From Desulfamplus sp. (GTDB taxonomy: Bacteria > Desulfobacterota > Desulfobacteria > Desulfobacterales > Desulfobacteraceae), in contig JADFZJ010000018.1 in assembly GCA_015232555.1 (NCBI GenBank), positions 4,934 through 68,933 of the forward strand: DNA of 64,000 bases. Direction: 5' to 3'. The notes under the pieces were generated by a model. That model was not told where the DNA came from and ran no database searches. It was given only the letters and a program-made list of their open reading frames with translations. This document shows positions 40,741 to 59,225 of this stretch, one piece after another. The position numbers and the translations under genes were made by a program. Positions within the stretch are counted from its first letter, which is position 1. Every line of letters begins with the position of its first letter.

Positions 40741-43700
40741 ATGCCAAAACGTACAGATATAAAAAAGATTCTTATTATTGGAGCAGGTCCGATTATTATT
40801 AGTCAAGCCTGCGAATTTGATTATTCAGGCACTCAAGCGTGCAAGGCTTTGAAAGAGGAGGGTTATGAGGTAGTTTTAATCAACTCAAACCCTGCTACTA
40901 TAATGACTGACCCTGATACAGCCGACAGAGTATATATTGAGCCTGTAACACCTGAAACCGTTGAAAAGGTAATTGCCAAAGAGCGACCAGATGCACTTCT
41001 GCCGACACTTGGGGGACAGACAGGTCTTAATACTGCGGTTGAGGTGGCAAAAAGGGGAATTCTTGAACGATACAATGTTGAGATGATAGGAGCTTCTGTT
41101 GAAGCTATCAAAAAAGCAGAAGATAGAGAGCTTTTCCGCGATGCCATGAACCGGATCAATTTACGTATTCCAAGAAGTGGTTTTGCTAAAAACATGCACG
41201 AAGTTGATAAGGTTGCCGAAGAGATTGGCTTTCCAATAATTGTTCGCCCAAGTTTTACACTTGGTGGAACAGGCGGCGGTGTTGCCTACAATCCTGAAGA
41301 GCTTGCTGTTCTTTCTAAAAAAGGGCTTGATGCAAGTTTCATAGGTCAGGTGATGCTTGAGGAGTCGGTTCTTGGCTGGAAAGAGTATGAACTTGAGGTT
41401 ATGCGGGATCACGCGGGCAATGTTGTTATAATCTGTTCGATTGAAAATATTGATCCTATGGGAGTTCACACAGGAGACAGCATAACAGTTGCCCCTGCCC
41501 AAACCCTTTCTGATAAAGAGTATCAGATGCTCAGAGATGCCTCAATTGCAATCATGCAGGAGATTGGCGTTGATACTGGAGGCTCTAATGTTCAGTTTGC
41601 CATAAATCCTTCTAATGGAGAGATGATCATTGTTGAAATGAACCCAAGAGTATCCAGAAGCTCTGCACTTGCATCTAAAGCTACTGGCTTTCCAATTGCA
41701 AAGATTGCGGCAAAATTGGCAGTTGGATTTACTCTTGATGAGATTAAAAATGATATAACAGGTGAAACTCTTGCCTGTTTTGAACCATCTATTGATTACT
41801 GCGTAGTAAAAATTCCACGCTGGACATTTGAGAAATTTCCTGAAACTGATGATATTTTGACCACTGCCATGAAATCGGTTGGTGAAACAATGTCAATTGG
41901 CAGAACATTTAAAGAGGCTCTGCAAAAAGGTTTACGTTCTCTTGAAATCGGAAGATTTGGATTTGGTGCAGATGGCAAGGACCCTGTATCTGGCTCGGTT
42001 TCAAGAACTGAACTTGAATATAGACTTGCAACACCAAATTCCCAGAGGATTTTTTATATCAAATATGCTCTTGAGAATGGCATGTCAATTGAGGCAATAA
42101 ACGAACTTACAGGTATTGATCCCTGGTTTCTCTACCAGATGAAGCAGCTTGTGGAATTTCAAAAAACCGTAGAGACGCATGGACGTGCATCTCTACAATC
42201 TAATCGTGCGTCTTCACAATCTAATCTTGAATCTTTGCAATCTAATCTTACGTATCCACAATCTATAATCTCTTATGAGACCATGGAAAAGGCAAAAAGA
42301 TGGGGATTTTCAGATAGACAGCTTGCACATCTTACAGGTTTTTCAGAAGAGCAGATTGAAAGTTACAGAAAAAAACTTGGTATTGTGCCAGTCTATAAAC
42401 TTGTTGATACCTGTGCCGCAGAGTTCAGAGCTGCCACGCCATATTATTACTCAACATACGAAAAAGAGTGCGAGGCAAGAATATCAGACCGTAAAAAAGT
42501 GATGATTTTAGGTGGTGGTCCAAACCGAATCGGACAGGGAATTGAGTTTGACTACTGCTGTGTTCAAGCATCTTTTGCCTTGAGAGAAGAGGGTGTTGAG
42601 AGCATCATGGTCAACAGCAATCCTGAAACCGTCAGTACAGATTATGATACATCAGATAAACTCTACTTTGAACCTCTGACCCGTGAAGATGTTCTGCACA
42701 TTGTTGAGAAAGAAAAACCTGACGGCGTTATTGTGCAGTTTGGCGGGCAGACTCCGTTGAACCTTGCAACAGTACTTAAAAAAGCAGGGGTTCCAATTAT
42801 CGGTACAAGCCCTGAAAGCATTGATATGGCGGAAAACCGTGATCTGTTTCAGGCAATGCTCAGAAAACTTGATATTGCCCAGCCTGCCAACGGAATTGCG
42901 ACAAACTTTCCAGAAGCTCAAAAAGTTGCCCGTGAAATTGGCTATCCAGTCATGGTTAGACCCTCGTTTGTTTTAGGAGGGCGTGCCATGAAGATAGTGT
43001 ATGAGCCAAAAGAGCTTGAGGAGTATTTTAACCTTGCAATATCAGCATCCCCTGATCACCCTGTATTGATTGACCAATTTTTAGAAGATGCGTTTGAACT
43101 TGATGTTGATGCAATTTCCGATGGTAACCGCACCATAATAGGTGGAATGATGGAGCACATTGAGGAGGCTGGAATTCATTCAGGAGATTCTGCCTGTGTT
43201 CTGCCTCCCTACAGCATACCTGCCCATTTGATTCAGGAGATGGCTGATGCTACCCGGGCACTTGCAAAAGAGCTGAAAGTTATAGGGCTTATGAATATCC
43301 AATTTGCCATTATGGATGGAAAACTTTACGTGATTGAGGTCAATCCAAGAGCATCAAGAACAGTTCCATTTGTCAGTAAGGCTACAGGTGTTCCTTTGGC
43401 AAAACTTGCCACAAAGGTTATGCTTGGAAAAACTCTTGATGAACTGGGATTGACAAAAGAGGTGATACCTCTCCACTATTCGGTAAAAGAGGCTGTCATG
43501 CCTTTTGACAGGTTTGACAAGGTTGATCCTGTGCTTGGACCTGAAATGAAATCAACTGGAGAAGTTATGGGCATTGACATGGAGCTTGGGGCAGCCTTTG
43601 CAAAAGCCCAGCTTGGTGCAGGTCAAAATCTTCCAACCGAAGGGACTGTCTTTATAAGTGTTCAAGATAGAGATAAAATGTCCGCCCTTCCAGTTGCAAA

Positions 43701-44055
43701 AGAGTTCTATCAGATGGGATTCAAGCTCATTGCCACACGGGGAACTGCGATGTTTCTTCAAGATAATGCAATTCCTGCAAAAGTTGTGGAAAAGGTATCT
43801 ACAGGCAGACCTCATGTAGTTGATGCTGTTAAAAATAATGAGATTCAGCTTATTTTAAACACAGGGGCAAGCAGCCAGACAAAGATGGACGGCTACGAAA
43901 TTAGAAGGTCTGCAATAAGATATAAAATCCCTTATGCAACAACAACCGATGGTGCAAAGGCAATTTGCAGGGCAATCAAGGCATTGAAAAAAGAGCCTTT
44001 AACTGTAAAGTCGATTCAAGAGTATCATGCACCGTTTAATTCAAAAGTAGGTTAA
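40741..44055 (+). CDS. carB: carbamoyl-phosphate synthase large subunit
   Basis: [30 protein letters not shown], two ATP-grasp halves and an MGS domain. Confidence 0.98.
42169..42267 (+). repeat. 28-bp REP-like palindrome plus four 21-bp tandem units, in frame within carB
   Basis: GTAGAGACGCATGGACGTGCATCTCTAC (42169-42196), then units at 42184, 42205, 42226 and 42247; encodes [32 protein letters not shown]. Confidence 0.85.
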
Positions 44056-59126: not shown

Positions 59127-59177
59127 TACTTTGGGAGTTATACTATTCAAGGTCATAGACTGAATTTTACATAAACT

Positions 59178-59205
59178 GTAGAGACGAACGGTCGTGCGTC
59201 TCTAC
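59178..59205 (+). repeat. 28-bp REP-like palindrome (intergenic copy)
   Basis: GTAGAGACGAACGGTCGTGCGTCTCTAC between convergent katA and rsmE; same element as in carB. Confidence 0.85.
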
Positions 59206-59225
59206 TTAGATATAAAAAGGTACTA

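Follow-up and report, generated by a model that had tools for sequence, protein, structure and literature searches.

The carB gene of a Desulfamplus-like bacterium, which encodes the large subunit of carbamoyl-phosphate synthase (CPSase) and lies in the 64,000-nt stretch of DNA analysed here (the window), contains a repetitive extragenic palindromic (REP) element that is read in frame in a surface loop of the protein and is followed by three extra copies of its right half. The segment adds about 26 residues to the enzyme. It very probably goes back to an old insertion of the REP and a later tandem duplication of its right arm together with a short tail, in a loop that tolerates such changes. 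The genome holding the window (G000; other G numbers denote relatives) is a draft assembly of 3.82 Mb with a GC content of 37.8%, which is 96% complete and consists of 106 contigs.

The REP element and the 21-nt array in carB

The CarB protein has the Pfam domains CPSase_L_D1, D2, D3 and MGS and aligns over its full length with the E. coli CarB structures (1362 bits), with a break between the E. coli residues 484 and 488. The palindrome begins at carB codon 477 and the open reading frame (ORF) stays open through the whole segment (Table 1). It differs at three positions from the genome consensus GTAGAGACGCACGGCCGTGCGTCTCTAC and is predicted to fold as a DNA hairpin of -6.9 kcal/mol (z = -4.0); the hairpin of the family consensus has a 12-bp stem and reaches -12.5 kcal/mol. 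A tail related to the one that adjoins the palindrome in carB (AATCTA.A) was found in all five species with this REP insert in carB, and several other REP copies in G000 bear the 8-nt tail AATTTCAT.

The array consists of four head-to-tail units of 21 nt (42184-42267), each made up of the 13-nt right arm and the 8-nt tail. The unit starts one base beyond the centre of the palindrome and ends exactly where the tail ends. Tandem Repeats Finder reported a repeat of period 21 with 3.9 copies, 75% matches and a score of 80 at 42184-42265, and the self-identity of the array at lag 21 is 0.73, a value that 983 other 84-nt windows of carB do not approach at any lag, their highest being 0.51. Of the 13 arm positions, 1, 2, 5 and 4 deviate from the consensus in units 1, 2, 3 and 4, respectively. 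The tail is unchanged across units 1-3, and the units differ among themselves by 14-43%. Unit 1 has an A in place of a consensus G that is still present in unit 2, which indicates that the duplication is older than this change. Unit 4 leads into native carB sequence (ATCTCT...), and its 3' end coincides with the junction seen in sister species. As the unit length is divisible by three and the frame is kept, the array has the head-to-tail form of a slippage-type coding repeat.

An identical protein segment has been recorded from a separate 14-kb contig (P0126), which is the sole database protein with the array and speaks against an artefact of assembly. Such an artefact might be suspected at a repeat in a metagenome-derived, 106-contig draft because repeats are error-prone. 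However, the ORF is open and in frame across the segment, and the same element occupies the same site in the orthologs of four other assemblies. Together with the second contig, this makes an artefact hardly credible.

Table 1 Features of carB and of the second REP copy in the window
Feature	Position	Strand	Remarks
carB, carbamoyl-phosphate synthase large subunit	40741-44055	+	1104-aa ORF
28-nt double-foot REP palindrome, 5' GTAG, 3' CTAC	42169-42196	+	residues 477-486, in frame
8-nt tail AATCTAAT	42197-42204	+	directly 3' of the carB REP
Unit 1, right arm of REP plus tail	42184-42204	+	1/13 arm positions off consensus
Unit 2, RASSQSN	42205-42225	+	18/21 identical to unit 1
Unit 3, LESLQSN	42226-42246	+	17/21 identical to unit 1
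Unit 4, LTYPQSI, most decayed	42247-42267	+	14/21 identical to unit 1
Second REP copy	59178-59205		hairpin -8.3 kcal/mol

Effect of the insert on the CarB protein

The insert lies within CPSase_L_D3, the oligomerisation domain, of which 105 residues are spread over 79 profile positions. The invariant positions that flank it are separated by 26 residues in 52 of 71 related CarB proteins and by 52 residues in G000, and residues 487-507 form the sole internal segment that is missing from more than 80% of the 70 other CarB proteins. In a full-length AlphaFold model based on the 71-sequence alignment (pTM, the predicted template modelling score, 0.85), residues 488-507 have a predicted local distance difference test score (pLDDT) below 50 and form a coil between confident helices. 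This model was used because a single-sequence prediction of residues 401-580 was too poor (pLDDT 49). Thus, the mapping locates the insert in the only loop of the domain that varies by insertion and deletion. CPSase tetramers form across this domain, and oligomerisation has been reported to be without effect on the regulation of the E. coli enzyme (PMC6245113), which fits the tolerance of carB for the insert.

A preliminary description of the window had proposed that the palindrome matches an intergenic copy at 59178, that it is REP-like and was inserted in frame in carB, and that four decaying 21-bp units follow in a variable loop of the oligomerisation region. All of this is borne out by the results given here and below; the two copies in the window share 24 of 28 positions.

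History of the carB site

The site was compared with carB from 30 relatives. The alignment of orthologs revealed the empty site, a 27-nt linker encoding IVLAG.D.P, in other genera and in the distant congeners G001 and G012. Four sister species (G013, G005, G011 and G006) have a 42-nt linker, which consists of a decayed 28-mer followed by AATCTA.A and lacks the extra units. The homology of their inserts with that of G000 is significant (p < 0.002), and in a carB tree that excludes the insert, G000 is sister to a clade with the four species (100% support). Since the insert of the sister species exceeds the empty linker by no more than 15 nt, native codons (IVL.) must have been replaced. The insertion is old because it is shared by five species whose third-codon carB identity is only about 0.65 (0.63-0.66 between G000 and its nearest relatives). 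The preliminary description had regarded the segment as a snapshot of selfish DNA forming new protein sequence. The REP-derived residues in frame are in agreement with this view, but the snapshot is not a fresh one, for the insertion predates the split of the five species.

The hairpin can still be folded in G000 and G005 and has decayed in the other three sister species. In G005, a hairpin of -8.2 kcal/mol was kept through a compensatory change from G:C to T:A, and the left-arm peptide V/I-E-T-H is retained in all five species with the insert. Both observations could speak for an adaptive feature of CarB, be it a flexible linker under selection or a hairpin in the mRNA that modulates translation, whose resemblance to the repeat family would be secondary. 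Such a function is nevertheless highly improbable, given the decay of the hairpin in three of four sister species, the unrelated inserts, with 0 to 53 extra residues, that congeners bear at the same site, the occurrence of the same REP-encoded peptide in unrelated genes and in REP-associated tyrosine transposases (RAYTs), and the reported lack of influence of oligomerisation on the regulation of E. coli CPSase (PMC6245113).

The unrelated inserts, of 35-62 residues, are found at the same point of carB in five further congeners. In G008 (L016), 62 extra residues include a 21-nt tandem array of its own with units of the SATSSIT type. G009 and G004 (L005, L006) have a different GC-rich insert with a small palindrome, CCCTCTCC...GGAGAGGG, of which 3-4 copies exist in G009 and G004 and none in G000 or G013; the end of this insert, GCTAC AATCAAT, resembles a REP foot plus tail. 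The inserts of G010, G003 and G008 were also considered as homologues of the G000 array, which would have made the array ancient, and this was rejected because the similarity was not significant (p 0.2-0.7). The insert of G010 keeps an exact 9-mer of the right arm.

The REP family in G000 and the genus

REP copies were defined by a genome-wide Hamming scan as sequences with at most seven mismatches to the 28-nt consensus. There are 98 copies in G000 and none in a shuffled genome; five copies are perfect, 18 have one mismatch and 23 have two. The second copy in the window lies between two convergent ORFs, within a truncated palindrome (about 59138-59220) that resembles a miniature inverted-repeat transposable element (MITE) and belongs to type A. 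Judged by a loose motif criterion, about 60 of the 98 copies occupy the apex of one of two such MITE-like palindromes of about 100 nt, and the rest are solo. The ends of type A are like TATACTGTTCAAGGTCATAAATTGAG and those of type B like GAGTGTAGCCTTTTT; further MITE-like palindromes were seen at G000:C106:16017-16125 and C40:12180-12290.

Some six copies are situated well within long ORFs and are invariably read in a frame free of stops, of which there are two (VETH..SL and RDA..VST). Besides carB, the genes concerned comprise a polyketide synthase (PKS) gene, a CheW-repeat gene, a heptosyltransferase-like gene and two further genes. The REP family occurs in each of the 13 further genomes of the genus but in none of 17 genomes that represent other genera of the same taxonomic family and order. 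The central six bases vary between species, and a master with a CGGCCG loop is abundant in G000, G004, G009 and G013. No Rfam family was found at the carB site, and a literature search by REP sequence yielded only primers and cloning oligonucleotides.

Differences in presence or absence at orthologous sites were detected for carB, the CheW-repeat gene, the PKS gene and a site in G004 versus G000, and their footprints are not uniform. A clean target-site duplication was sought at carB without success, and no single common footprint emerged from the other insertions. In the CheW-repeat gene (G000:C64:14791, L052), G000 has an in-frame addition of 51 nt relative to G013 (L053), of which 40 nt are an insert with the REP and 11 nt a direct repeat of the target sequence, with 10/11 positions in agreement. 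In G004, an insert with a REP measures about 100 nt and comes with a direct repeat of about 10 nt; the corresponding empty site is G000:C68:13811. The PKS gene (2671 aa; G000:C51:65940-65967, locus L193) carries a perfect REP copy in frame. At the same site, G005 and G013 have decayed copies that are 6 nt shorter and G011 is empty, the net difference being +30 nt. The perfect state of the G000 copy, at a site that is old and shared, suggests that it was renewed via gene conversion or re-insertion.

Tandem arrays with a period of at least 18 touch 6 of the 98 REP copies in G000, as compared with 8-11 of 1000 random sites (p of about 0.001). Arrays of 20-37-nt units that contain one arm, to the left or to the right of a hairpin, were noted at G000:C21:15890-15996, C29:113080-113150, C12:47550-47615 and C40:100327-100425.

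The link to RAYT transposases

The exact 28-mer pattern was scanned across about 186,000 species genomes. Among the matches listed are genomes of Bacteroidota, Spirochaetota, Chloroflexota, Planctomycetota, Acidobacteriota, groups of the candidate phyla radiation (CPR), cyanobacteria, Parabeggiatoa and others; their GC contents range from 31 to 67%, and a few central hexamers recur. When the ORFs near the foreign matches were clustered, one recurrent family appeared at 7 of 80 loci among the matches listed. It is a Y1/HuH protein, a RAYT, with the 28-mer in frame. One member (P0005) scored 80.4 bits against the NCBIfam model REP_Tyr_transpos, which has a cut-off of 80. Among the best 119 homologues of P0005, 109 have the motif in the region that separates the HuH half from the Tyr half, in 105 cases exactly as VETHGRASL.

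The published RAYT motifs for subclass 2.4 of TnpA_REP are NH[IFV]H, WQ and YIxNNP. The RAYT sequences found here show PNHIH, PNHVH or PNHLH, WQ and YI.NNP, the NHLH variant being a conservative departure from the published pattern. Decayed left-arm copies occur upstream of the hairpin in 62 of 108 RAYT homologues, and a few RAYT genes, such as that of P0104, have right-arm-plus-tail copies downstream, which are strikingly similar to the carB peptide. Hence, judged by sequence, the carB hairpin fits the kind that would be recognised by RAYT/TnpA_REP of subclass 2.4, a tie that is provided by RAYT genes elsewhere.

Three congeners have a RAYT gene, each with an in-frame variant of the double-foot REP between the HuH and Tyr halves (G009, L186; G008, L187:1813-1876; G001, L188). 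In the RAYT gene of G008, the left arm is present as a tandem of two 18-nt copies, and the gene of G001 contains a long array of 15-nt repeats.

Origin of the 21-nt array

According to the preferred reading, a 28-nt double-foot REP would have entered an inter-helix loop of CarB in the ancestor of a five-species Desulfamplus subclade, where it would have replaced a few native codons and been translated since then as V/I-E-T-H-G-...-S-L-Q. It may have persisted because the loop tolerates insertions. In the G000 lineage, the 3' arm and the 8-nt tail (21 nt, seven codons) would have been duplicated three times in tandem, most likely by slipped-strand mispairing when the hairpin stalled a replication fork, followed by slippage at the level of units. 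The units would have diverged afterwards, with unit 1, as a part of the hairpin, staying nearest to the consensus, and the net outcome would be 26 extra residues in the form of a disordered loop. The data establish that the palindrome belongs to the REP family and is read in frame, that an empty site exists, that the insert is of common descent in the five species, that the extra units are confined to the G000 lineage, that the insert lies in a loop and that the hairpin is tied to RAYT genes elsewhere. We infer the slippage, its stimulation by the hairpin and the neutrality of the insert for CarB function.

Several observations weigh against this reconstruction. First, G009 and G004 nest in the sister clade, yet they carry a different insert and the native IVLT is restored. 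Recombination has thus probably reshuffled the segment, and the simple vertical history is an approximation. Second, a microhomology that could explain the first duplication was sought and not found. Third, no matching RAYT was detected in the G000 assembly, either by tblastn, for which seven foreign and three congeneric RAYTs served as queries, or by a profile-guided search. Finally, four derived states are common to unit 3 and the arm of the G006 and G011 orthologs, which fits a collapsed ancestral array at least as well as it fits a duplication confined to G000.

If the array were ancestral to the five-species clade, the sister clade would have lost all but one unit by a collapse. In favour of this, a stretch of 17 nt that includes the four derived positions is identical in unit 3 and in the decayed arm plus tail of G006. 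Moreover, a single gain is as parsimonious as a single loss, G000 being the single outgroup to the sister clade, and the divergence among the units is comparable to the third-codon divergence between species. However, two deletions or one complex deletion would be needed to leave the left arm and a single unit, selection for the peptide E-S-L-Q might have produced the shared states in parallel, and an intermediate copy number was observed in no other genome or database protein. An ancestral array is therefore considered rather doubtful as a whole, and between the two directions a gain of units in the G000 lineage is favoured over a loss in the sister clade on grounds of simplicity.

The units might also have been made by the element itself if a RAYT nicked and rejoined the DNA at the hairpin apex and at the 3' end, adding 5'-truncated copies one at a time. 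The unit runs from just past the palindrome centre to the end of the tail, the tail accompanies several REP copies, the decay grows with distance from the hairpin, as it would if each new unit had joined beside it, and the array resembles the outward arrays common in RAYT genes. Nevertheless, the gradient of decay can also be explained by constraint on unit 1 within the hairpin, and no RAYT was found in the G000 assembly; we know of no biochemical precedent for an arm duplication as a RAYT product. Taken together, this route is unlikely. The RAYT gene flanked by the 28-mer that the preliminary description had put forward as a check thus did not turn up in G000, and its view of the palindromes as RAYT targets holds in so far as the same hairpin resides in RAYT genes elsewhere. 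The two Y1 genes of G000 are of the IS200 type, and both were dismissed as the RAYT in question because neither lies near a REP copy.

Tentatively, slippage in carB might be one instance of a more general process in which REPs of subclass 2.4 seed arrays that grow outwards in any frame, in host and transposase genes alike, and are a recurrent and predictable source of new protein loops of low complexity. Units of the left arm would be added upstream and units of the right arm plus tail downstream, by way of hairpin-stalled replication or of nicking and rejoining by a RAYT. In addition, coding copies at orthologous sites would be restored to the master sequence of the genome, for which the perfect copy in the G000 PKS gene, as opposed to the shorter decayed copies in two sister species, could be an example. 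This generalisation is possible, and it is put forward with far less confidence than the account of carB itself.

Comparison with known systems

The carB element is most similar to the REPs of TnpA_REP subclass 2.4 (RAYT group 4), for which the passages of Quentin et al. (2018, PMC6006769) that treat this subclass describe "double foot" REPs with 5' GT[AG]G and 3' C[TC]AC. According to the same passages, these REPs occur in frame within tnpA_REP, in a variable insertion domain that separates the HuH and Tyr motifs and contains short repeats, the subclass is patchily distributed across Bacteroidetes, Cyanobacteria and other phyla, and some genomes keep REPs without a transposase gene. In line with this portrayal, the carB element is a palindromic hairpin within the size range of about 20-40 nt with both feet (GTAG...CTAC), it has many dispersed copies, mostly outside genes, and it has a cognate tnpA_REP containing the REP in other genomes, with a patchy spread across phyla. 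It departs from the portrayal in that no cognate tnpA_REP was found in the same genome, the assembly of which is 96% complete, so that the gene may have been missed. Moreover, the host gene is carB and the host a Desulfamplus-like deltaproteobacterium, and units of arm plus tail in a host gene do not feature in those passages of the paper.

Intragenic REPs tagged by GTAG or CGTC, including the Rickettsia palindromic elements, have been described before (Di Nocera, De Gregorio and Rocco 2013, PMC3733652). They lie wholly within ORFs of known proteins, in frame, singly or clustered, contribute up to 43-82 residues and are thought to be tolerated in loops or linkers (PMC3733652). However, the clusters in that study are built from whole REPs or dimers, whereas the carB array comprises only the 3' half and the tail. 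In addition, the GTAG tag is unpaired at one end in that class, whereas both feet are present and paired with each other in carB. The Rickettsia elements differ from the carB REP in tag (CGTC), length and host, and share with it only the in-frame residence in proteins.

The REPIN/RAYT systems of Pseudomonas and enterobacteria offer a further comparison (Bertels and Rainey 2011, PMC3116915). Both there and here, a family of short palindromes has a within-genome master with near-identical copies and is linked to a single-copy or near single-copy Y1/HuH transposase. In contrast, the REPIN systems involve RAYT groups 2 and 3 and inverted, extragenic REP doublets, whereas about 60 of the 98 copies in G000 occupy the apex of a MITE-like palindrome. 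The carB REP also resembles the small dispersed repeats (SDRs) that Elhai and co-workers are reported to have found in heterocyst-forming cyanobacteria (2008, Genome Research). These are reportedly hairpin repeats of 21-27 nt that are nested in minitransposons, embedded in short tandem repeats and in some cases located in genes, and no transposase is said to have been linked to them; sequences and hosts differ from those of the carB REP.

Intragenic REPs and the present REP class have thus been published before, and the carB case is clear but fairly ordinary in this respect. New are the host gene and the taxon, the stepwise series across species and the tandem units derived from half an element. 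The series leads from an empty site via a single REP and a decayed REP to a REP with a 21-nt array, all in an essential enzyme, and it shows how non-coding selfish DNA becomes protein sequence. It also extends intragenic REPs and the double-foot family of subclass 2.4 to a genus of sulfate reducers. The occurrence of the same pattern of arm duplication in RAYT genes across phyla suggests that REP hairpins may be connected with the birth of coding tandem repeats. In annotation, a peptide such as RDARPCVST in unrelated proteins is best treated as the footprint of a REP and not as a motif.

A different repeat near an IS200-type gene

Upstream of one of the IS200-type tnpA genes of G000 (C51:26698), another repeat, about 120 nt long, was observed in two copies (G000:C51:26300-26700; L031:1200-1460). 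This repeat holds a GC-rich hairpin, gccgtggggct.aagccctcggc, and may be an end structure of the insertion sequence or a REP of another family.

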